A DNA stretch of 64,000 nt from an uncultured Kiloniellales bacterium (GCA_964195155.1 CAXMOP010000060.1:9860-73859), one strand, 5' to 3'; numbered from the stretch's first letter, positions 13,484 to 32,556 are shown. The notes: generated from the letters alone by a model not told the origin. Numbers and translations: made by a program.

Positions 13484-13942
13484 ATGTCCAACGCTCGCCA
13501 CCGGACGATTCGACGCCTGCTCACCGAGGAGAATATGTCCACCCAGGCGGAACTCGTTCGACGGCTCGCTGCCGAGCAGATCTATGTCACCCAGGGCACG
13601 GTGTCCCGCGACCTCAAGGCCATCGGCGCGGTGAGACGGCACGGCGCCGACGGATCGGTGCGGTACCGGCTCGAGACCGGCGCCTCACCGAACGGCGCAG
13701 ACAGCGGGCTTACCCGTGCTTTCGACGAGTACGTGTTGCGGATCACCCCCACCGCCGGACTCGTCGTGGTGGTCACCGTTCCCGGTGCCGCCCATGTCGT
13801 TGGCAAGGCCATCGACGAGAGCGGCGTCGGCGGCGTCGCCGGCACGGTCGCCGGTGACGACACCGTCCTGATCGTTGGAGCGGCGGGCGTCGAGGGTGAG
13901 ACGATCGCAGGCCGACTCGAGACCGCAGGAGGATCCAGATGA
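13484..13942 (+). CDS. argR: arginine repressor (copy 1)
   Basis: [27 protein letters not shown]. Confidence 0.93.
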
Positions 13943-22005: not shown

Positions 22006-22455
22006 ATGAGCAAGCGGTCGCGCCAGGCGGAGATTCTGCTCCTGATCGAGCAACAAGACGTCTCCACCCAGGCCGAGATGGTGGCTGCGCTGCTTGAGGC
22101 TGGAATCGAAGCTGCCCAGGCCACCGTCTCGAGAGATATTGGTGAGTTGGGCTTGGTGAAAGTCCGGGGCGACGGTGGGCGGATGATCTATGCCACACCC
22201 GGCGCCAAGGACAACGACCGGATCCTGGCGCTCTCCCGGGCCTTGCGGCGCTGGGCGTCCGCCATACGGGGAAACAGCAATCTCGTGCTCATCGAGACTC
22301 CCGCCGGATACGCCTCTGCGCTTGCCCAGGTCATCGACGAGGCGGGGCATCCCGACGTTCTTGGGACGGTTGCCGGGGACAACACCGTTCTCGTCGTCGC
22401 CGATGACCGTTTGACCGGTGCCGACCTCGCCGACGAGCTGATGCTCCTCTCATAG
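22006..22455 (+). CDS. argR: arginine repressor (copy 2)
   Basis: AQATVSRDI, TPAGYA, GTVAGDNTVLV. Confidence 0.92.
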   Translation: MSKRSRQAEILLLIEQQDVSTQAEMVAALLEAGIEAAQATVSRDIGELGLVKVRGDGGRMIYATPGAKDNDRILALSRALRRWASAIRGNSNLVLIETPAGYASALAQVIDEAGHPDVLGTVAGDNTVLVVADDRLTGADLADELMLLS

Positions 22456-22508
22456 CCGACCCTCCCGGCCCGCCGACCCACCCGGCCCGCCGACCCGCCA
22501 ACCCGCCG
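22455..22508. repeat. short tandem repeat of GCCGACCC-containing units (about 17 nt)
   Basis: gccgaccctcccggccc gccgacccacccggccc gccgaccc gccaaccc gccg. Confidence 0.6.
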
Positions 22509-22566
22509 AAGCTGTTCCGCGGGCTGACAGCGTCATATAGCCGCTCTCGAACCCTGGGTTCGCGTC
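22504..22566. repeat. direct repeat, right flank of the arg module
   Basis: cgccgaagctgttccgcgggctgacagcgtcatatagccgctc..gaaccctgggttcgcgtc. Confidence 0.85.
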
Positions 22567-23903
22567 TAGGGGGACTCCGTTGCCTGGCCGAGGTCCTGCC
22601 ATGCGTTGGTCCCACCGGTGATGCTTCGGGCGTTCCCGTAGCCAAGGCTGTTCAAGAACAACACGCCGGGGAGCGAAATGTTGCCTCGCTGGCACACGGT
22701 GAGCACCGGGGTGCTCAGATCTTCGGGAAGCTCCGACGCACGATCGGGAAGCTCGGCAAGCGGGATGTTGACTGCATCCTGGATGTGCCCGGCGCGGTAC
22801 TCGTCGTGGCTTCGCACGTCGATCACGAGCGCGTCTTCGTTCTTCCACAGTTCGTGGGCGGCGGCAACGTCGATGGTCAAGTCCGGGTTGGCCCTGGCGT
22901 TCTCGATCATTCCCTCATACAGCGGATCGCGCCTCGTCCCGGAGGTCGATTGCTCTGCACTCAGTCCCGTCAGATGCTTGACCAGCGACGATGCGTATTT
23001 GAAGGCGCTGTCGGGGAACAGCACCACCACACGGTTGCCGGGCTCGTCGTCGACCAACTCGAGCGCCCCAGCCAGGGCCAATCCAGAGCTCGGCCCCGCG
23101 GTGACGCTGTCTTCCCGGTTCAGGCGCAGGCAGAGCTGGAAAGCCTCATCGTTGCCGATCTCCGCCAGCCCGTCGTACTCGTCGGGGTGGAAGAATTCGG
23201 TCTGCTCCAGCTGGCGGATGCTGCGGACGCCGGGGATGTCGTGCCCCTCGCTCGGGTGCACGCCGAGTATCTGCACACCGGGATCGTGCTCCTTGAGGAA
23301 TCGGCCCACGCCGCTGATGGTGCCGCAGGTGCCGAGGCCGGCGACAAAATGCGTGACGGTGCCTTCCGTCTGATGCCAGATCTCCGGTCCGGTGGTCCGG
23401 TAGTGGGCGTCGGGATTGGCCTGGTTGCTGTACTGGTCGAGCATGTGAAAGTCCTGCTGTTCGGCAATCTCCTTCGCTCTGGCGATGGCGCCCTCGGGCG
23501 CCCACGGCGCCGGGCACAGATCGTCGTCCAGCTCCACCACGCCCGCTCCGAAAAAGCGAAGCATGGTTCGCTTTTCGATCGGAATCTGGTTGGACATGGT
23601 TGTGGTGACGGAGTAGCCGTTGGCATTGGCCAACATCGCCAGACCGAGCCCGGTGTTGCCAGAAGTGGGCTCCACCAGGTCGAGGCCCGGGGCGATCACG
23701 CCGCGCTCCTCGGCGTCGCGCACCATGTTCATGGCAACGCGGTCCTTCACCGCCCCGAACGGGTTGTACCACTCCAGCTTGGCGTACACCTCGGTGTGCT
23801 CGAACGGGATGACCCGGTTGAGACGCACCAGCGGTGTGGGGTTGTCGACGCTCGGGAGCAGGTCCACGATCGAGTCGTAGACCCTCAGCGAGTCGTTGTT
23901 CAC
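22566..23903 (-). CDS. PLP-dependent cysteine synthase family protein fused to a C-terminal rhodanese
   Basis: KLEWYNPFGAVKDR (PLP Lys), EPTSGNTG, GLGTCGT; rhodanese IDVRS..GHIQDAVNIP..VCQRGNIS. Confidence 0.88.
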   Translation of the reverse strand: MNNDSLRVYDSIVDLLPSVDNPTPLVRLNRVIPFEHTEVYAKLEWYNPFGAVKDRVAMNMVRDAEERGVIAPGLDLVEPTSGNTGLGLAMLANANGYSVTTTMSNQIPIEKRTMLRFFGAGVVELDDDLCPAPWAPEGAIARAKEIAEQQDFHMLDQYSNQANPDAHYRTTGPEIWHQTEGTVTHFVAGLGTCGTISGVGRFLKEHDPGVQILGVHPSEGHDIPGVRSIRQLEQTEFFHPDEYDGLAEIGNDEAFQLCLRLNREDSVTAGPSSGLALAGALELVDDEPGNRVVVLFPDSAFKYASSLVKHLTGLSAEQSTSGTRRDPLYEGMIENARANPDLTIDVAAAHELWKNEDALVIDVRSHDEYRAGHIQDAVNIPLAELPDRASELPEDLSTPVLTVCQRGNISLPGVLFLNSLGYGNARSITGGTNAWQDLGQATESP

Positions 23904-23933
23904 GGGGAATCCTCCATTTCTGCGAGCGATCGG

Positions 23934-24629
23934 TCAGCCGGCGAGCCTGGCGGTCACCCCGCTTGCCCCTACCTCGACTGCCGTCGGAACCACCGCGATG
24001 CCGTACTTGCGGGCGAGATCGGGGCGCTCCTTGACGTCGACCATGGCCAAGCGTCGGCCTTCCGCAACCAGCCGACTTTCCAGGTCGTGACAGTCGGTGC
24101 ACAGCGGATGGGTGAACAGCACGACCACTTCACTGCCCTCCTCGACCCCCACATCCGAGAGGTCGACGTGATCGAGCCGGTGTCCGTAGATGCCCCGTAT
24201 CCGTGCACCGAGCCGATACAGCTCGCAACCGACGCAGAACCCGGTTGTTGCGGCCAGCAGCGCCAGCGCCGCGACAAGAAGCCCAAGAGCCCAGCCCAGG
24301 GCGTCGAGGCCGACGACGTGTGCCAGCGAGGCAGCGCCGAGAACGACCAGCCCGACCTGGTTGGCGAACTTGGGGGGTCGAGCATCCTCGATCGGCCCCT
24401 CCCCGAAGCGAGGCTGGATCAGCTCGAAGTAGACGAGGCAGGGAAGGCAATAGCGGCGGCCAAACCGCAAACCAACGAAGAGCTGGAGGGCAAGGATTGC
24501 CAACAGCGGCCACCAGTCGATGACGTAGGCGAGCAAGGCAAGCGAACCGATGGTCACCTGGTTGACCCGGGGTGCCCAGGCGTCGATGACCTTCAGGTCG
24601 CGGTAGGGATCCGCGGTTCGCTCGGTCAT
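23934..24629 (-). CDS. DUF4395 membrane protein fused to a thioredoxin-like domain
   Basis: IDAWAPRVNQ, EDARPPKFANQVG, AATTGFCVGCELY; C-terminal HPLCTDC, YGIAVVPT. Confidence 0.8.
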   Translation of the reverse strand: MTERTADPYRDLKVIDAWAPRVNQVTIGSLALLAYVIDWWPLLAILALQLFVGLRFGRRYCLPCLVYFELIQPRFGEGPIEDARPPKFANQVGLVVLGAASLAHVVGLDALGWALGLLVAALALLAATTGFCVGCELYRLGARIRGIYGHRLDHVDLSDVGVEEGSEVVVLFTHPLCTDCHDLESRLVAEGRRLAMVDVKERPDLARKYGIAVVPTAVEVGASGVTARLAG

Positions 24630-25480
24630 GACCCAGCCACCGAGCCACGCTCGACCGGCACGTCGACCAATGAGCCGTATTCGGTCCACGATCCGTCGTA
24701 GTTCTTGGCGTTCGAGTGGCCGAGCAGCTCATGCAGCACAAACCAGGTGTGCGAGGAGCGCTCTCCGATGCGGCAGTACGCGATCACCTCGTCTTCGAGG
24801 ACGCCCTCACCCTCATACAGAGCGCGTAGCTCCGCCTCGGACTTGAAGGTCCCGTCTTCGTTGGCTGCTCGGCTCCACGGGATGTTCTTGGCCCCCGGCA
24901 CGTGGCCTCCCACATATGGTTGCTCCTGGGGCAGATGGTCTGGTGCGAGCTTCTCGCCCGAGAATTCCTCTGGAGACCGAACGTCGACGAACGTGACGCC
25001 ATCTTTCTTGGCGAGCACCTCATCACGCAGAACCCGAAGCTCAGGTCGTAGGGCTCCGCTGATCTGGAAGTCGCTCTTCTCGATCGCCGGGACCGCATCG
25101 ACGACTTTTCTGTCCTCGAGCTCCCACTTTTGACGGCCACCATCGAGGAGCCTGACGTTGTCGAAGCCTCGGTACTTGAGCAGCCAGTAGGCGTAGGCAG
25201 CGAACCAGTTGTTGTTGGCGCCGTAGAGCACCACCGTGATGTCGTCATCTACTCCGGCCTCGGCAAGCAGTCGCGAAAAGCCGTCCTGGTCGATGTAGTC
25301 GCGCCGTATTGGATGGTGGAGGTCCGTCGCCCAGTTCCAGGCGTGGGCTCCGGGAATGTGATCTTTCTCGTAGGTAGTGGTGTTCTCGTCCACCTCGATG
25401 ATCCGCACCGCCGGATCATCCAGGTGCTCGACCAGCCAATCGGTAGAGACGAGGGCGTCGGGGTTTGCGTAATCGGACAT
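24626..25480 (-). CDS. thiosulfate sulfurtransferase (two-domain rhodanese, CysA/SseA type)
   Basis: LVSTDWL, HIPGA, NNWFAAYAYW, YCRIGERS, YDGSWTEYG. Confidence 0.93.
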   Translation of the reverse strand: MSDYANPDALVSTDWLVEHLDDPAVRIIEVDENTTTYEKDHIPGAHAWNWATDLHHPIRRDYIDQDGFSRLLAEAGVDDDITVVLYGANNNWFAAYAYWLLKYRGFDNVRLLDGGRQKWELEDRKVVDAVPAIEKSDFQISGALRPELRVLRDEVLAKKDGVTFVDVRSPEEFSGEKLAPDHLPQEQPYVGGHVPGAKNIPWSRAANEDGTFKSEAELRALYEGEGVLEDEVIAYCRIGERSSHTWFVLHELLGHSNAKNYDGSWTEYGSLVDVPVERGSVAGS

Positions 25481-25842
25481 GGTGAATAGCTCCTTTTCAG
25501 CCTGTGGAACGAAGGACGACGCCGAAAGAGGAAGAGACTCTCAGGTGGTGGCGTCTAGGAGCGCTCGGGGCGAGCGGCACTCGGGTCCACCCGAGAGCCG
25601 ATACAGATGCTCCACCCCGACATGCCGATTGCCTGCCTTCCGATTTCACCTATGCAGATAGTGTAAACCTACGCCTGCTGCTGGCTTCCGTCAAGAGGCA
25701 AAACCCGCCCGACCGGTCGCGGTTGCCCGGCCACTATGGCGGCATCGAGCCCGGTGCGAGGACGCCGAGCCTCGACCGGGAAGCACAATATTGGCCGTTG
25801 ACGTTTCCCCGGCTCGAAGGCATACTGCCCGAACACACACGC

Positions 25843-25928
25843 GCTCATCAAGAGCGGCTGAGGGACAGGCCCGATGAAGCCGCGGCAACCGGCGTGACCA
25901 GCACGGTGCCAATGCCTGAACGATGAGC
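25843..25928 (+). ncRNA. SAM-I (S-box) riboswitch aptamer with minimal P4
   Basis: CTCATCAAGAG..GAGGGACAGGCCCGATGAAGCC..GGCAACC..GGTGCCAA..GATGAG; promoter TTGACG(25798)-N17-CATACT(25821). Confidence 0.9.
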
Positions 25929-25991
25929 CGCCAACGGCGGACCTTCCGCCCGAGGCGCTCGAAGAGCGCGTCGGATCGAGGAGGACATGCC

Positions 25992-27218
25992 GTGGCATTT
26001 GTTGAATCGCTGATCTGCAGGGAGTGCTCGCGCACCTACGAAGTCGCCCCCAGCTACTTCTGTGAGTGGTGTTTTGGCCCGCTCGAGGTGCTCTATGACT
26101 ACGACGCGATCGCCGACACCATCTCAAGGGAGAAGATCGCCGAGGGCCCGCCAACACTATGGAGATACGCCGATCTCCTGCCGGTGGAGGCGTCGGCTGC
26201 GGCCGATCTCGGCGCCGGGTTCACTCCGCTGGTCAGGGCAGATCGTCTCGCCGAGGTGCTCGGGCTCGGCGAGCTGTGGGTGAAGAACGACACCCTCAAT
26301 CCAACGAACTCGTTCAAGGACCGGCCGGTCACCGTTGCGGTGACCAAGGCACTTGAGTTCGGGATCAAGACCGTGGCTTGCGCATCGACCGGCAATCTCG
26401 CCAACGCGGTTGCCGCCCACGCCGCCAGGGCCGGCCTCGACTCCTATGTGTTCGTTCCCCACGACATCGAGCGCTCAAAGATCGTGGCCACCGCTGCCCT
26501 CGGAACCGTCGTCGCCGTCCAAGGGAACTATGACGACGTCAACCGGCTGTGCGTCCAGCTCAACGAGGAATACCCCTGGGGCCTTGTCAACATCAATCTC
26601 CGTCCCTACTACGCCGAGGGGTCGAAGACCCTCGCGTTCGAAACCGCCGAACAGCTTGGCTGGCAGCTCCCCGATCACGTGGTGGTACCGGTCGCCAGCG
26701 GAGCGCTCCTGACCAAGATCGCCAGGGGTTTCGACGAGCTGGTTCGGGTCGGTCTCGTCGATGCCAACGAGGTGCGGATCTCGGGTGCACAGGCGGAGGG
26801 ATGCTCGCCGGTCGCCACCGCCTTCCTGGAGGGAAGCGACGACGTTCGGCCTCAGAAGCCGAACACGATCGCCAAATCGCTGGCGATCGGGGATCCGGCC
26901 GACGGGTACTACGCACTGCGCGAGGTGAGGCGCAGCGGCGGAGCTGTAGCTGCGGTCACCGACGATGAGATCGTCGAAGCCATTCACCTCCTCGCCCGAA
27001 CCGAGGGCATCCTCACCGAGCCTGCCGGAGGGGTAACGGTTGCCACGCTGGCCAAGTTGGCTCGCGAAGGGCAGGTGACCGAATCGGAGCGGGTAGTCAT
27101 CTACATCACCGGCCACGGGTTGAAGGCAACGGAAGTCATCGCCGCCGATGACCCGGTTGCCATCCCGGCCACGATCGACGGCTTTCGGTCCGAATTCGAG
27201 ATCAAGGAGTACGCATGA
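25992..27218 (+). CDS. threonine synthase-like PLP enzyme (probable MetM-type O-phosphohomoserine sulfhydrylase)
   Basis: N-terminal CxxC..CxxC, NPTNSFKDR, CASTGN, EGSKT; under a SAM riboswitch and coupled to a sulfur carrier gene. Confidence 0.8.
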   Translation: MAFVESLICRECSRTYEVAPSYFCEWCFGPLEVLYDYDAIADTISREKIAEGPPTLWRYADLLPVEASAAADLGAGFTPLVRADRLAEVLGLGELWVKNDTLNPTNSFKDRPVTVAVTKALEFGIKTVACASTGNLANAVAAHAARAGLDSYVFVPHDIERSKIVATAALGTVVAVQGNYDDVNRLCVQLNEEYPWGLVNINLRPYYAEGSKTLAFETAEQLGWQLPDHVVVPVASGALLTKIARGFDELVRVGLVDANEVRISGAQAEGCSPVATAFLEGSDDVRPQKPNTIAKSLAIGDPADGYYALREVRRSGGAVAAVTDDEIVEAIHLLARTEGILTEPAGGVTVATLAKLAREGQVTESERVVIYITGHGLKATEVIAADDPVAIPATIDGFRSEFEIKEYA

Positions 27219-27490
27219 CGGCGACCGTCCGAATCCCAACGTCCCTGAGAGGCCTGACCAAAGGATCATCCGAGGTGGAGGTTCCTCCTGGCCGGGTAGG
27301 AACGGCCCTCGATGACCTCATCACTAAATACCCTGATCTCAGGGAGCGGCTGATCGGTGAGGACGGAAAGCCGCGGCGCTTCGTCAACATCTTCGTGGCC
27401 GAAGACGACATCCGCTTCCTGGACGGGCTGGAAACCGCGGTGACCGATGGCCAGGTGGTCACCATCCTGCCTGCCGTGGCGGGTGGGTAA
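27215..27490 (+). CDS. MoaD/ThiS/CysO-family sulfur carrier protein
   Basis: VRIPTSLR, RRFVNIFV, C-terminal PAVAGG. Confidence 0.92.
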   Translation: MTATVRIPTSLRGLTKGSSEVEVPPGRVGTALDDLITKYPDLRERLIGEDGKPRRFVNIFVAEDDIRFLDGLETAVTDGQVVTILPAVAGG

Positions 27491-27493
27491 GCC

Positions 27494-28669
27494 ATGAGCG
27501 TGAGCTTTCAGGACCTGGTCAACCAGGCAAAGGAGCAGATCAGGGAGGTCGATCCGGTCGAGCTCGAGCGACGCCTCACCCGGGTCACCGTCCTCGACAT
27601 CAGAGAAGCCGGGGAATTCGACCAGGGCGCGATCGGTGGAGCGCACCTGGCTCCGCGGGGGATTCTCGAATCGGTGATCGGCGTCCTTGCCTCTGACTTC
27701 GACCAGGCGGTGGTGGTCTACTGCGCCGGCGGGGCACGCTCGGCGCTGGCCGCCCAGACCCTGCAGCAGATGGGCTACACCGATGTGTGGTCCCTGGCAG
27801 GCGGATTCGACCGCTGGAAGAACGAAGGCCTCCCCTGGGGTGCGCCGGAGAGTCTGACCGCCGATCAGCGCGTCCGATACAGCCGCCACATCCTCCTCCC
27901 CGAAGTCGGTGAGCAAGGCCAAATCAAGCTGCTCGAATCTCGGGTGCTCCTGGTCGGTGCCGGCGGACTCGGATCACCCGCCGCCCTGTACCTGGCTGCG
28001 GCCGGTGTGGGCACGATTGGAGTCGTTGACTTCGACGTCGTCGACGCGTCCAACCTGCAACGACAGGTCCTCCACAACGTCGATCGCATCGGGCAACCGA
28101 AGGTCGATTCGGCCAGGGAGACACTGACCGCACTCAACCCGGATGTGAAGGTGGTGACCTACAACGAGCGGCTCACCGCCGACAACGTGCTCGACATCTT
28201 TGTCGAGTACGACGTCATCGTCGACGGCGGCGACAACTTCCCAACGCGGTATCTGGTGAACGACGCAGCGTTGCACCTGCGAAAACCGGTGGTGCACGGA
28301 TCGGTCTTTCGATTCGAGGGCCAGGTGACCGTCTTCGATCCCTATGTCGGCCCGTGCTACCGATGCCAGTTCCCGGAGCCGCCCCCACCCGAGCTTGCCC
28401 CGTCGTGCGCAGAGGCGGGGGTGCTCGGAGTGCTCACCGGGATCATCGGCTCCATCCAGGCGATCGAGGCGGCCAAGATCCTGCTCGATATCGGGGAGGG
28501 TCTGACGGGACGGCTCCTCACCTACGACGGGCTCACCCAGGAGTTCCGCACGCTTCGAGTCCGGCGCGACCCGGGGTGCCCTGCCTGCGGCGACGAGAAC
28601 CAGCCGCCCCGGCTCGTCGAGTACGACATCGCCTGCGCTCACCCCGGGTCGGTGGCCAGGATCGCCTGA
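27494..28669 (+). CDS. moeB: MoeB/ThiF adenylyltransferase with N-terminal rhodanese
   Basis: YCAGGARS rhodanese loop; RYSRH, GAGGLGSP, SNLQRQ, CYRC..CPAC. Confidence 0.92.
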   Translation: MSVSFQDLVNQAKEQIREVDPVELERRLTRVTVLDIREAGEFDQGAIGGAHLAPRGILESVIGVLASDFDQAVVVYCAGGARSALAAQTLQQMGYTDVWSLAGGFDRWKNEGLPWGAPESLTADQRVRYSRHILLPEVGEQGQIKLLESRVLLVGAGGLGSPAALYLAAAGVGTIGVVDFDVVDASNLQRQVLHNVDRIGQPKVDSARETLTALNPDVKVVTYNERLTADNVLDIFVEYDVIVDGGDNFPTRYLVNDAALHLRKPVVHGSVFRFEGQVTVFDPYVGPCYRCQFPEPPPPELAPSCAEAGVLGVLTGIIGSIQAIEAAKILLDIGEGLTGRLLTYDGLTQEFRTLRVRRDPGCPACGDENQPPRLVEYDIACAHPGSVARIA

Positions 28670-28734
28670 CTCCCGGATTGCACCGACGTAGCCGGCGGTC
28701 GAGCTGCCGGTGATTCTGGCCGATGGGCGCGACC

Positions 28735-29961
28735 TCAGACCGGCGGTGTGCCCGGCACGTCGATCAGACGCTGCTGATCGAAGTCGGAGTCGGCGCCGTC
28801 GGCAGCGTCGACGTGGTCGCGCCGCACCCCCATGAGAAACAGGATGGCGTCGAGGTATGGGACGGTCAGCGCCGCATCTGCCGAGTCGCTGACCAGCGGC
28901 TTGGCATTGAAGGCAATGCCAAGCCCCGCGGCGGCCAGCATCTCGAGATCGTTGGCCCCGTCTCCCACCGCAACGACCTGACTGAGCGGCACTCCCTCGG
29001 CCTCGGCGACCGACCTCAGAAACCGCGCCTTTCCGGCTCCGTCGACGATCGCTTCGGTCAGGCGTCCGGTGAGACGCCCCTCCTCGACTGCAAGGGTGTT
29101 GGAAAGCGAGTACTGGATGCCGAGCTCCTTCACCACTGCATCGGTGACCCGCGAGAACCCGGATGAGACGATCGCGGTGACCAGGCCAAGACGTTTCACG
29201 GTGCGAATGAAGGTGCGGGCTCCCTTGGTGAGGCTGATCTTGTCCGCCACCCGAGCCATTGCCTCCTCCTCGAGCCCTGCGAGCAGTTCGACCCGTTTGC
29301 GTAGTGAGTGCTCGAAGTCGATCTCACCCGCCATGGCGGCTGTGGTGAGCGTCGCCACCTCATCTCCGACGCCTGCCTCCTCGGCGAGCAGGTCGATGAC
29401 CTCGTCTTCAATCAGCGTGGAATCGACGTCCATCACGATGATGCGCTTGGCCCGGCGGAGGAGGCCGTCTGGTTGGATGGCGATATCGATGGGCAGACGA
29501 GCGGCAGCCTCGACCAGGCCGGCACGCATCTGGTCGACGTCGCCCGACGATACAACGAGCTCGTAGCTGACCACCGGGTACCGGGAGAGGCGATAGATGC
29601 GCTCGATGTTGCCGCCGCCCGAAGCGATCGCCACCGCCACCGCGCCGAACTCGCCCGGTCCAACCGTCACTCCGATGATGGTCACAATGGCCATCGGTCG
29701 AGCCGGGGTCGGCGCCTCGTCCAGAACTTCGAATTCCAGGTGAAGGTCGTTGTCCCAACCAAAGAGCAGCAGGTCGCGGATCGTCGCCCGCTCTCCCGGC
29801 ACCCCGACGAGCACATTCAGGGTGAGCCGGCCGCGGACCACGATCTGTTCAACGTCGTGGATGTCGGCGCCGGTGGCGCTGAGCACCTCCATGAGCGATG
29901 CGGTGATGCCGGGCCGGTCGGCGCCGTGCACAGCCACGAGGACGGTAGATCGATCGGTCAT
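28735..29961 (-). CDS. serB: phosphoserine phosphatase (ACT-ACT-HAD)
   Basis: GADRPGIT ACT, MDVDSTLI, GDGANDL; TAGCAT -10 7 nt before the ATG (leaderless). Confidence 0.93.
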   Translation of the reverse strand: MTDRSTVLVAVHGADRPGITASLMEVLSATGADIHDVEQIVVRGRLTLNVLVGVPGERATIRDLLLFGWDNDLHLEFEVLDEAPTPARPMAIVTIIGVTVGPGEFGAVAVAIASGGGNIERIYRLSRYPVVSYELVVSSGDVDQMRAGLVEAAARLPIDIAIQPDGLLRRAKRIIVMDVDSTLIEDEVIDLLAEEAGVGDEVATLTTAAMAGEIDFEHSLRKRVELLAGLEEEAMARVADKISLTKGARTFIRTVKRLGLVTAIVSSGFSRVTDAVVKELGIQYSLSNTLAVEEGRLTGRLTEAIVDGAGKARFLRSVAEAEGVPLSQVVAVGDGANDLEMLAAAGLGIAFNAKPLVSDSADAALTVPYLDAILFLMGVRRDHVDAADGADSDFDQQRLIDVPGTPPV

Positions 29962-30084
29962 GGCGCCGCATGCTATCGCCCCGCCGGCGGGCACCGTATC
30001 CAGGCGCCTTGGCAGGGCAGCGGCCCAGCATGGGGAGTACGACGTCGCTGCGCTCACCCGGGTCGGCCGCCCGGATGGCCTATT

Positions 30085-32556
30085 TCACAGGTTCGCTCCG
30101 AGGTAGTTGGCGAGTCGCAGCAGGTCGGCGAACACCCCGCCGGCGGTGACCTCGGGCCCTGCGCCCGGGCCCTGTACGACCAGCGGGTTTTCCCGGTACC
30201 GATCCGTCTGGAACTCGACGATGTTGTCGGTGAGGCGGATCCTGGCGAAGTGATGATCCGCCTCGTAGGAGCGCAGGCGGACGCTGCAGCCTTGCGTGGG
30301 ATCGATGATCCCCACGAAGCGCAGCACCTGGCTGCGGGATCGACTCTCCTCGACCAGGCGGAGCATCTCGTCGTCGTAGTCCCGCAGCTGGATCAGGAAA
30401 TCGTCGGGCGAGCCCGCCTCGAGACCGGCCGGCACCAGGCTCTCGACGTCAACGTCGGCAAGCTCGATGTCGAGGCCCATTTCGCGGGCGAGGATCACCA
30501 GTTTTCGAGCGACGTCCATCCCGGAGAGATCTTCGCGGGGATCGGGCTCGGTGTAGCCCTTCGCTCGTGCCGCAGCCACAATCTCGGAGAAGGGGACCGA
30601 TCCATCGAAGCTGTTGAACAGGTAGGAAAGCGTGCCGGAAAAGATGCCCTCGATGCGACGGATTTCATCACCGGTCTGCACCAGGTCGCGAAGCGTTTGC
30701 ACGATGGGAAGCGCCGCTCCGACCGTGGTCTCGTAGAAGTAGTGGGCATCGGCACGCCTGGCGCCCTCTCGCAGCGATCGATAGAAGTCGAGCGGCCCAG
30801 TGCTCGCCCGCTTGTTCGGGGTGATCACATGGATGCCCTGAGACAGCCAGTCCACATAGCGCATCGCCACGTCCTCACTGGCCGTGCAGTCGATGATGAC
30901 GGCATGGGGAACGGTCTCGGTGTGGACGTAGTCTGCGAGCCGATCCAGGTCCACAGGGACGGCGTTTGCATCGTCCTCGTCGAGGCGCTGACGCCACTCG
31001 TCGAGATCGATGCGGTGCTCGTCGAGCGCCATCGTCGAGCTGTTGCAGATCGCCCGTACGCGCAGGTCGACCCCGAACTCGTCCCGCAGCCAGTCGAGCC
31101 GCCTTGCCATCTGATCGAGCAGCGTTGAGCCCACGTGGCCAGGCCCGACCAGGCCGATCGACAGCGTCTGCTTGGAGAGATAGAACCCGGAGTGCGCGGC
31201 CCGAACCGCCTTGGTGGCATCGGCGCTATCGATGACGACCGAGATGTTTCGCTCGGATGATCCCTGTGCGATCGCCCGGACGTTGACCCCGGCACGGGCA
31301 AGCGCTCCAAAGAAGTTGGCCGCAATACCCGGGGTGCCGGCCATCCCGTCTCCCACAACCGCCAGGATCGTGCAGTTCTCGGTGATGCGGGGTGATTGGA
31401 TCTGCCCGTATCGAGTCTCCGACTCGAACGCTCGCTCGATCGCCCGGCTTGCAGTCTCGGCCTCGGATTGGAGCGTGGCGAAACAGATCGAATGCTCCGA
31501 GCTGCCCTGGGAGATCATAACCACAGATACGCCGGCGTGGCGGAGGGCGCCAAAGACTCGTTCCGAGATGCCGGGGACCCCGATCATCGCCGTACCCTCG
31601 AGATTAATCAGCGCCATGTCGCCGATCGAAGCAAAGCCCTTGACCGGCGACGTCGATTTGGTGCCGACATGAATTCGCGTGCCGGGCGCAGACAGATTGA
31701 ACGCATTTCTGATGTAGATCGGGATTTCGCGCTCGATCGCCGGGCCCATGGTCGCGGGATGGATCACCTCGGCACCGAAGTAGGCCAGTTCGATCGCCTC
31801 GTTGAAGGAGAGCTCCTCGAGAACCCGGGTCTGAGGGACCAGGCGGGGGTCGGCGCTGAGCACCCCGTCGACGTCGGTCCAGATGACGATCTTTCGTGCC
31901 CCGAGCAATGAGGCAAAGATCGAGGCCGAGTAGTCACTGCCGTTTCGCCCGAGCGTGGTGGGGGCACCCGCCGGATCCGAAGCGATGAACCCGGTGATCA
32001 CCGTCGTATCCGCTTCATTTGCATCGAGCCAGTCGGCGAGTCGCGATCGAGAGGCGTCCCAGTCCACCGAGGGCAGCAGCTCGCCCGGGCGCACGATCAA
32101 GACTTCCCGTGCATCGAGCCAGGTGGCGCTGGCCCCCTGGTTCTCGAGGTAGGCAGCCAGCAGGCGGGCCGACCACACCTCGCCGAAGCCGGCGACAACG
32201 CCAACGGCGCTCTCCGAAACAGCGTGCATGACCCACGAGGCTCGCAGCACATCCCCGATGTCGACCCAATCCTTCTCGATCTGTGCGATCAGCTCGTGAC
32301 CACCGTCCATCAGGTCCTGCGCCACAGTGGTCTGGCGGTCCCGCAGTTGATCGGCAAGCTCCTCGTAGCGCGGCTCGCGACGACCGGCCCGCTCGACCAC
32401 CTCGATGAGACCATCGGTCATTCCCGCCATGGCGGACACGACCACTGCCCGTCTGGCATCGGTCGATGCTCCCAGGTTGGATGCAGCAGCCCGGTAGGCC
32501 GATGCGTCGGCCAGGCTGCTGCCGCCGAACTTGTGCGTTACCCATTGCTCAGCCAC
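30085..32556 (-). CDS. thrA: bifunctional aspartate kinase/homoserine dehydrogenase I
   Basis: HKFGGSS, TTLGRNGSDYSA, WTDVDG, two ACT domains, GPGHVG, YETTVGAALP, GPGAGPEVTA. Confidence 0.93.
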   Translation of the reverse strand: MAEQWVTHKFGGSSLADASAYRAAASNLGASTDARRAVVVSAMAGMTDGLIEVVERAGRREPRYEELADQLRDRQTTVAQDLMDGGHELIAQIEKDWVDIGDVLRASWVMHAVSESAVGVVAGFGEVWSARLLAAYLENQGASATWLDAREVLIVRPGELLPSVDWDASRSRLADWLDANEADTTVITGFIASDPAGAPTTLGRNGSDYSASIFASLLGARKIVIWTDVDGVLSADPRLVPQTRVLEELSFNEAIELAYFGAEVIHPATMGPAIEREIPIYIRNAFNLSAPGTRIHVGTKSTSPVKGFASIGDMALINLEGTAMIGVPGISERVFGALRHAGVSVVMISQGSSEHSICFATLQSEAETASRAIERAFESETRYGQIQSPRITENCTILAVVGDGMAGTPGIAANFFGALARAGVNVRAIAQGSSERNISVVIDSADATKAVRAAHSGFYLSKQTLSIGLVGPGHVGSTLLDQMARRLDWLRDEFGVDLRVRAICNSSTMALDEHRIDLDEWRQRLDEDDANAVPVDLDRLADYVHTETVPHAVIIDCTASEDVAMRYVDWLSQGIHVITPNKRASTGPLDFYRSLREGARRADAHYFYETTVGAALPIVQTLRDLVQTGDEIRRIEGIFSGTLSYLFNSFDGSVPFSEIVAAARAKGYTEPDPREDLSGMDVARKLVILAREMGLDIELADVDVESLVPAGLEAGSPDDFLIQLRDYDDEMLRLVEESRSRSQVLRFVGIIDPTQGCSVRLRSYEADHHFARIRLTDNIVEFQTDRYRENPLVVQGPGAGPEVTAGGVFADLLRLANYLGANL

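Follow-up and report, generated by a model that had tools for sequence, protein, structure and literature searches.

A predicted MetM/MetO operon under SAM-I riboswitch control beside a candidate cysteine-synthesis unit in an uncultured Kiloniellales bacterium

Two facing sulfur operons

The window analysed here is a 64,000-nucleotide stretch of DNA from an uncultured Kiloniellales bacterium (GCA_964195155.1, CAXMOP010000060.1:9860-73859), in which an operon headed by an S-adenosylmethionine (SAM)-I riboswitch and a ThrC-like gene faces an operon for a sulfurtransferase, a membrane protein and a CysM-rhodanese fusion. Judging from sequence comparisons, homocysteine is very probably the product of the riboswitch operon, formed by the known MetM/MetO route. 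The facing operon is probably a cysteine-synthesis unit under regulation of its own, and of the species compared, this one alone has the two side by side. All coordinates are those of the whole window. The genome (G000) is 96.6% complete, and its contigs are denoted by C and a number.

The operons were compared with 60 related genomes (6 congeners and 54 others; the genus comprises 7 genomes with our own), a sample of the phylum (n = 300), the best 80 of 499 loci related to metM, and 80 metagenome loci of the fusion. The fusion protein set consisted of the best 120 of 4461 homologs at E <= 1e-60, from 7999 candidates scored. Genomes flagged as unpublished were counted in (G050 of the 60; G061, G106 and G177 of the 125 phylum genomes with a metM-like gene); no conclusion hinges on these.

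The MetM-like operon

The operon and its control region are made up of the following elements:

25798..25826, + strand: sigma-70-like promoter, TTGACG-17-CATACT, from a consensus scan and alignment
25842..25929, + strand: SAM-I riboswitch aptamer, RF00162 (77 bits, cut-off 44.4)
25992..27218, + strand: putative MetM-like homocysteine synthase with the ThrC fold, 408 amino acids, with pyridoxal phosphate (PLP) lysine Lys109 (SFKDR) and two N-terminal CxxC motifs
27215..27490, + strand: MetO-like carrier of the ThiS/MoaD family, 91 amino acids, ending in AVAGG-stop with no C-terminal extension
27494..28669, + strand: MoeB with an N-terminal rhodanese domain, an E1-like activator (NF006444, 553 bits, cut-off 449), with a CAGGARS loop and two CxxC motifs

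The aptamer is the single Rfam RNA across the window (25842-25929), bearing out the earlier note on this DNA, which had placed a SAM riboswitch before the ThrC-like gene. With our own profile, a SAM-I riboswitch was found upstream of the metM-like gene in all 80 related loci, and an Rfam search confirmed it in 20 of the 20 loci tested, 16 of which were drawn from the 80-locus set. Apart from this one, the genome contains a single SAM-I riboswitch, which lies upstream of metE-metF. The promoter scan gave one site at 25798..25826 versus 0.0 expected from 50 shuffles, and the boxes are kept in four close relatives. The likely start of metM is the GTG at 25992, behind a GAGGAGG ribosome-binding site (25978-25984); a longer open reading frame (ORF) begins within the aptamer. 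The ribosome-binding site is predicted to be hidden by a hairpin downstream of the aptamer, from which we infer that the riboswitch platform switches access to it. Equilibrium folding gave no alternative state that freed the metM ribosome-binding site (accessibility 0.15 in both states). A terminator-like match at 25842-25856 was rejected, as it is the riboswitch read on the opposite strand.

The three genes are closely packed, with spacings of -4 nt between metM and the carrier gene and +3 nt between the carrier gene and moeB. The carrier adjoins the enzyme in 77 of the 80 related loci, the other three of which stop within 120 bases of the enzyme, and the Gly-Gly end is invariant in 34 of 34 aligned carriers. 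A MoeB gene next to the carrier is rare: it occurs in two of the 80 loci (68 of them with room for it), both closest kin, and in one of 29 phylum loci. In the enzyme, Tyr207 and Ser236 stand at the positions of Arg160 and Asn188 of PDB 1uim, which we take to be phosphate-binding residues; the same replacements occur in all 118 aligned homolog rows, which include a few duplicates. In a tree, the enzyme groups with riboswitch-carrier homologs of lineages throughout the phylum in one clade (SH-like approximate likelihood-ratio test 98), to which none of the other three thrC paralogs of the genome belongs. This tree, like that of the fusion below, was a quick one on a subset (42 of 123 rows for metM, 35 selected rows for the fusion), and two of the thrC paralogs are very long-branched. 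In a further family (f37) the gene is present in nine of nine genomes, with 54-56% identity and a place in the same clade, and the riboswitch-enzyme-carrier layout was seen in the three loci read. An actinomycete record holds a MetM-like homolog at 50.7% identity.

We considered whether the enzyme under SAM control might be a further threonine synthase or a deaminase, and the carrier a component of molybdopterin or thiamine synthesis. The thrC models TIGR00260 (295 bits) and NF006050 both accept the enzyme, and its best PDB matches are threonine synthases. The main caution comes from PMC12172450, in which a cyanobacterial homolog has threonine synthase and deaminase activities and no full MetM role. 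In addition, the assignment to the MetM class was made by homologs, motifs and layout, with S. albulus MetM compared by description only. These points weigh against the MetM assignment. On the other hand, the genome has four thrC paralogs, and the copy on C66, whose neighbours are argS and rho, has retained the canonical motifs, including those at the Arg160/Asn188 positions that are replaced in all the MetM-like rows. The enzyme is thus not the only thrC; its being the sole copy would, by the earlier note, have refuted the proposal. A second rhodanese-first MoeB (L007:5617-6729 on C115), 49% identical to that in the window, and a second MoaD-like protein are present for cofactor synthesis. 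With the consistent SAM-I riboswitch and the exchange with metX/metY described below, a second threonine synthase or deaminase is very improbable. (Further thrC-like paralogs were seen at L004:7182-8429 and L005:5670-6887, one of them inside a cluster of carbamoyltransferase- and carbamate-kinase-like genes.)

Distribution of metM and metX/metY

Close metM orthologs (86-91% identity) are present in four of the six congeners and in none of the 54 other relatives, where the best match had 43% identity. Within the genus, five of seven genomes contain a metM-like gene, and the two without it are 60% and 72% complete; L010 and L011 were not added to the congener counts. Neither metX nor metY was found in any of the seven genus genomes, versus 29/30 and 28/30 of the other family genomes, respectively. 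The genus thus appears to have swapped metX/metY for metM-metO-moeB. The phylum sample shows the same tendency, metX being present in 20 of the 125 genomes with a metM-like gene versus 78 of the 175 without one. Two points count against this argument. At the level of the order, nine of 24 genomes have neither metX nor a metM-like gene, so loss of metX does not force the acquisition of MetM, and the metM/metX counts are uncorrected for kinship, related genomes not being independent. Altogether, the riboswitch, carrier, motifs, paralogs and metX/metY loss give good support to the MetM/MetO reading that the earlier note had proposed for the operon. The operon is then another misannotated "thrC" of a published pathway, useful for annotation and a clear example of metX/metY giving way to metM/metO within a genus; it is hardly surprising, since 125 of the 300 sampled phylum genomes have a metM-like gene.

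Methionine and sulfur genes in the rest of the genome

Searches of the genome for metX (best 25.6 bits), metA, metY, cysE and sulfite reductase gave no match. The earlier note had asked what the genome holds outside the window, in which it saw neither the JAMM peptidase nor thrB. Besides the second thrC, a single JAMM peptidase gene was found on C1 and a full-length thrB-like gene on C45. The latter scored 141-144 bits against a cut-off of 168, and the genome also has two transsulfuration-type enzymes (CBS-like and CGL-like), a possible other route; both observations speak against the proposed pathway. There are only two ThiS-family carriers, of which the other is a MoaD-like fusion. A serA-like gene lies on C17, as does an IscS-like gene. 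If the IscS-like gene were the sulfur source, the methionine branch would stand downstream of cysteine.

The product of the JAMM gene (L004:14939-15553) is extended at its N terminus by about 80 residues without a Pfam match, and the gene stands before those for a metallo-beta-lactamase-fold protein and an RNase PH-like protein; the C1 locus contains neither cysO nor cysM. On C8 (L100:2381-5132), cysD-cysN-cysC-like genes adjoin a sulfotransferase-like gene, and no cysH or sulfite reductase match was found genome-wide, the lone match to the PAPS-reductase family being CysD. Sulfate activation by these genes probably serves sulfation.

In the proposed pathway, ThrA and ThrB would make O-phosphohomoserine. 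The rhodanese-MoeB would adenylate the Gly-Gly end of the carrier and then form the thiocarboxylate from its own persulfide, and the ThrC-fold enzyme would swap the phosphate of O-phosphohomoserine for the carrier sulfur. Homocysteine might be freed directly or via the JAMM peptidase, and MetE and MetF, under the second SAM-I riboswitch, would complete methionine.

The facing operon and its leader

The operon on the opposite strand comprises:

25666..25694, - strand: promoter-like site, TTGACG-17-TAGGTT, from an alignment with G004 and G005
25555..25623, - strand: leader ORF of 22 codons with one Cys codon, a candidate cysteine-sensing attenuator
24626..25480, - strand: CysA-type two-domain thiosulfate sulfurtransferase with a CRIGERS loop
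23934..24629, - strand: DUF4395 membrane protein, its CxxC-bearing tail weakly similar to thioredoxin (21.2 bits, cut-off 23.5)
22566..23903, - strand: CysM-like PLP enzyme fused to a rhodanese domain, with Lys53, an extra Cys130, Arg227 and rhodanese Cys404

The consensus promoter scan did not report the site at 25666..25694. The three rhodanese-bearing proteins of the two operons span 6.1 kb, in line with the figure of about 6 kb given earlier. What had been called a DUF4395-thioredoxin protein is indeed a DUF4395 protein, with its thioredoxin-like tail below the cut-off. An intergenic repeat of about 60 bp, which has 20 matches in the genome, borders the cysteine block on its left side (22505-22566).

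The leader ORF had gone unnoticed in the earlier note. Of 30 loci, 10 have a homologous ORF before cysA, among them all eight at >=70% identity. These ORFs contain between one and four Cys codons, mostly spaced (one here, two to four in nine relatives), followed by a Ser-Arg-Val core; they differ in length by multiples of a codon, and each terminates in (Arg/His)-Ser-stop. An invariant CTCCT at the end of the ORF can pair with the cysA ribosome-binding site. A profile of the leader detected it ahead of the fusion at further loci, none of them used in building the profile: in G001 and in eight of the 80 metagenome loci (seven with an intact Cys-rich ORF). The leader ORF is a candidate cysteine-sensing attenuator of the cysA operon; ribosome stalling at its Cys codon would turn on CysA, DUF4395 and the fusion.

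Several observations tell against attenuation. Folding gave no clean switch, with ribosome-site accessibilities of 0.18, 0.29 and 0.19 in three states, and the fold had a z-score of -0.65. Simulated stalling changed nothing in four to five of the nine relatives' leaders. In the leader helix, 92% of cells are paired, yet the invariance of the 5' arm leaves no room for compensatory pairs, and none was seen. A second frame of the leader contains Cys codons as well (27 against 19), and the leader in the window is left with only one.

The CysM-rhodanese fusion

Both domains of the fusion are present in all 120 of the best homologs, whose sources include Acidobacteria, Gemmatimonadales and Gammaproteobacteria, and Lys53, Cys130, Arg227 and Cys404 are invariant throughout this set. 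The best whole-domain sequence matches are CysM, with 38-39% identity to CysM structures, and the predicted model (pLDDT 85) matches CysM and CBS folds as well as aspergillomarasmine A synthetase. Arg227 aligns with Arg297 of PDB 1WKV, the residue mutated to Ala in entry 6L0P. 1WKV, which we take to come from Aeropyrum, presumably owes its use of O-phosphoserine in part to this arginine. Relative to CysM, Cys130 sits in a five-residue insertion, in a loop that presumably faces the entrance to the active site, as in the CysK/CysM structures. The conservation of Cys130 suggests, at the level of sequence, a built-in persulfide relay, in which the fusion would make cysteine from O-phosphoserine with persulfide sulfur passed from CysA to Cys404 and on to Cys130.

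In the 80 metagenome loci, the Cys130 codon is TGY in 74, TGA in three, where the frame continues, and unread in three. The three TGA loci (L239:6076, L248:1586 and L258:391) have distinct sequences and form one clade. The in-frame TGA suggests a selenocysteine, and with it a candidate family of PLP-enzyme selenoproteins. A selenocysteine insertion sequence-like signal was sought after the three TGA codons and none was seen (z = 0.88, -0.09 and 2.14). The main text of a 2026 review of prokaryotic selenoproteins has no mention of pyridoxal, PLP, CysK or PALP. Literature searches that covered few subscription journals found no study of a CysM-rhodanese fusion, no paper on Arg297/Arg220, and none on such a leader or on a thrC-moaD riboswitch in Actinobacteria.

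We also considered whether the left operon might serve cysteine degradation, persulfide handling or, like aspergillomarasmine A synthetase, the synthesis of a different beta-substituted alanine. The PLP domain falls under every NCBIfam cut-off (cysKM 275 vs 344), and the fusion resembles PDB 8H4H/8H4Q over its full length at 26% identity. The same Cys-bearing insertion is carried by 12 unfused relatives, among the commonest motif variants listed; these lie beside TusA (11/12) and DsrE2 (7/12), and the CBS-like/CGL-like pair could yield cysteine from homocysteine. However, the leader has a Cys codon, the identity to CysM structures is well above that to the fungal enzyme, and the fusion lies with sulfite reductase genes in three relatives (G023, G041 and G052) and four of the 80 metagenome loci. 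A function other than cysteine synthesis is therefore quite unlikely. The unfused kin (L139-L150, e.g., L141:4440-6242) are found in the order; the idea that these 45% homologs form mec-cysO-cysM operons was rejected, as their neighbours are TusA and DsrE2.

In seven of the 80 fusion loci (L240, L241, L246, L253, L254, L256 and L257), the fusion heads a fusion-JAMM-carrier-MoeZ operon, and the six put in the tree form one clade. The carrier in these loci has a short extension, a gene for an Rrf2 regulator often follows MoeZ, and L253 contains an IscS-like gene.

It is possible, and we propose it only tentatively, that the fusion is a widespread cysteine synthase with its own relay, in which sulfur would move from a donor via Cys404 and Cys130 to the aminoacrylate formed from O-phosphoserine, and which would be a selenoprotein in one clade. 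Together with MetM/MetO, cysteine and homocysteine would then both be made from O-phospho amino acids and protein-bound sulfur, without acetylation, sulfite reductase or free sulfide; cysteine would be sensed in one branch and SAM in the other. If Cys130 does relay persulfide, this would be an undescribed way of feeding sulfur to a cysteine synthase, possibly extending to a family of PLP-enzyme selenoproteins.

Adjacency of the two operons

The earlier note had placed the two operons in an integrated assimilation hub. In its strongest form, this would mean that selection joined the operons, that CysA feeds the MoeB rhodanese, and that one Gly-Gly carrier serves both MetM and the fusion, cysteine being made on the carrier. 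The junction itself is real and no artefact of assembly, as contigs from four sequencing runs of four other studies (marine sediment and seawater) bridge it. Shared use of one carrier would also fit the JAMM-carrier-MoeZ operons headed by the fusion, which resemble mec-cysO-cysM, the small number of ThiS-family carriers and the single JAMM in the genome, and the lack of a sulfite reductase or cysE match. Moreover, a SAM-I riboswitch stands back to back with a Cys leader and the fusion at two further loci, L094:6982-7400 (G023) and L187:2-470. SAM- and Cys-controlled sulfur units have thus met at least twice, a result that leans towards the hub. In G023, siroheme, sulfite reductase and cysDN genes follow the riboswitch, and the ORF of the leader is interrupted.

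Nevertheless, the comparisons argue against a hub. The operons are adjacent in none of the four congeners with metM, none of the 80 metM loci (58 with >=3.5 kb upstream) and none of the 80 fusion loci (36 with >=3.5 kb), none of which has a thrC-like gene, and each operon has its own leader. A DNA search of the genus placed the cysteine and metM blocks on different contigs in G004 and G005, where the cysteine operon lies inside another contig; G002 and G006 match the metM block only, with no fusion match, and G017, G023, G041 and G052 have the fusion without metM. A metagenome locus with 93% identity (L181) has unrelated upstream genes. The region upstream of metM contains his genes in L011, the glnA-amtB region in G004 and lysA-argR in G006, and the cysteine operon of the window occupies the slot held by lysA in G006. 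The six JAMM-linked homologs, forming one clade, represent one event, as do G023 and L187, which are 83% identical. We therefore regard a hub as unlikely, and retain the reading of two separately regulated units. The divergent arrangement noted earlier is correct; the single shared promoter is not, since the DNA comparison gives two blocks, each brought from another locus along with its own promoter-like site.

Two further genes lie beyond moeB:

28735..29961, - strand: serB, phosphoserine phosphatase (ACT-ACT-HAD), converging on moeB
30085..32556, - strand: thrA, aspartate kinase-homoserine dehydrogenase I, tail-to-tail with the metM operon

Contrary to the earlier description, serB and thrA do not follow the operon: both are encoded on the minus strand and close a gltB-thrA run that converges on moeB. 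The position of thrA is the same in the three close relatives whose contig reaches it, a conserved linkage that counts somewhat in favour of the hub. In those three, serB is missing between moeB and thrA, and G004 has serB 4 kb upstream. SerB would use up O-phosphoserine, not provide it, and its position is not kept in congeners. Elsewhere in the window, argR-like genes at 13484-13942 (by sequence only) and 22006-22455 flank a split arginine/leucine biosynthesis cluster.

Comparison with known systems

The closest known system is the MetM/MetO route of Streptomyces albulus, which also involves MoeZ and Mec and was reportedly described by Hasebe et al. in 2024. The preprint bioRxiv 10.1101/2024.10.14.618325, PMC12172450 and 10.64898/2026.09.15.751699 summarise this pathway; the first states that MetM is often misannotated as threonine synthase, and the second that metM of S. 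albulus is preceded by a SAM riboswitch. The operon in the window shares with it a ThrC-homologous enzyme, a carrier, an upstream SAM riboswitch and an E1-like activator with a rhodanese domain, and JAMM and thrB elsewhere in the genome. Unlike in S. albulus, a dedicated rhodanese-first MoeB is part of the operon, with a domain order different from that of MoeZ; the carrier is ready without trimming, and metX/metY are otherwise used in the host family.

The mycobacterial CysO/CysM/Mec/MoeZR system (PMC3227635; PDB 3DKI and 3DWG) has the same chemistry of a thiocarboxylated Gly-Gly carrier, and the PLP domain of the fusion has the CysM fold, with 35% identity to 3DKI. In contrast, the cysteine operon described here contains neither carrier nor peptidase, and has a fused rhodanese and Cys130 instead. 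Thiosulfate is, according to PMC3227635, an improbable physiological donor for MoeZR. The fusion resembles O-phosphoserine sulfhydrylase 1WKV in the arginine aligned with Arg297, and enterobacterial CysM (2JC3 and 2BHS) as its best whole-domain match; it differs from both in the five-residue insertion with its invariant Cys and in the C-terminal rhodanese.

For the leader, the nearest parallel is Ms5788A, a mycobacterial polycysteine leader before Ms5788-cysA2 (bioRxiv 10.1101/834739). Both are short Cys-coding ORFs before a cysA-type operon that are able to pair with a ribosome-binding site. Ms5788A has eight consecutive Cys codons at its end, whereas those of the present leaders are few, mostly spaced and in the middle of the ORF, and the conserved core is different. 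Finally, aspergillomarasmine A synthetase (8H4H and 8H4Q, one entry being an O-phosphoserine complex) likewise combines a PLP cysteine-synthase fold and a rhodanese in one chain; it is a secondary-metabolite enzyme, distant in sequence from the fusion, which is found here in a different gene context.

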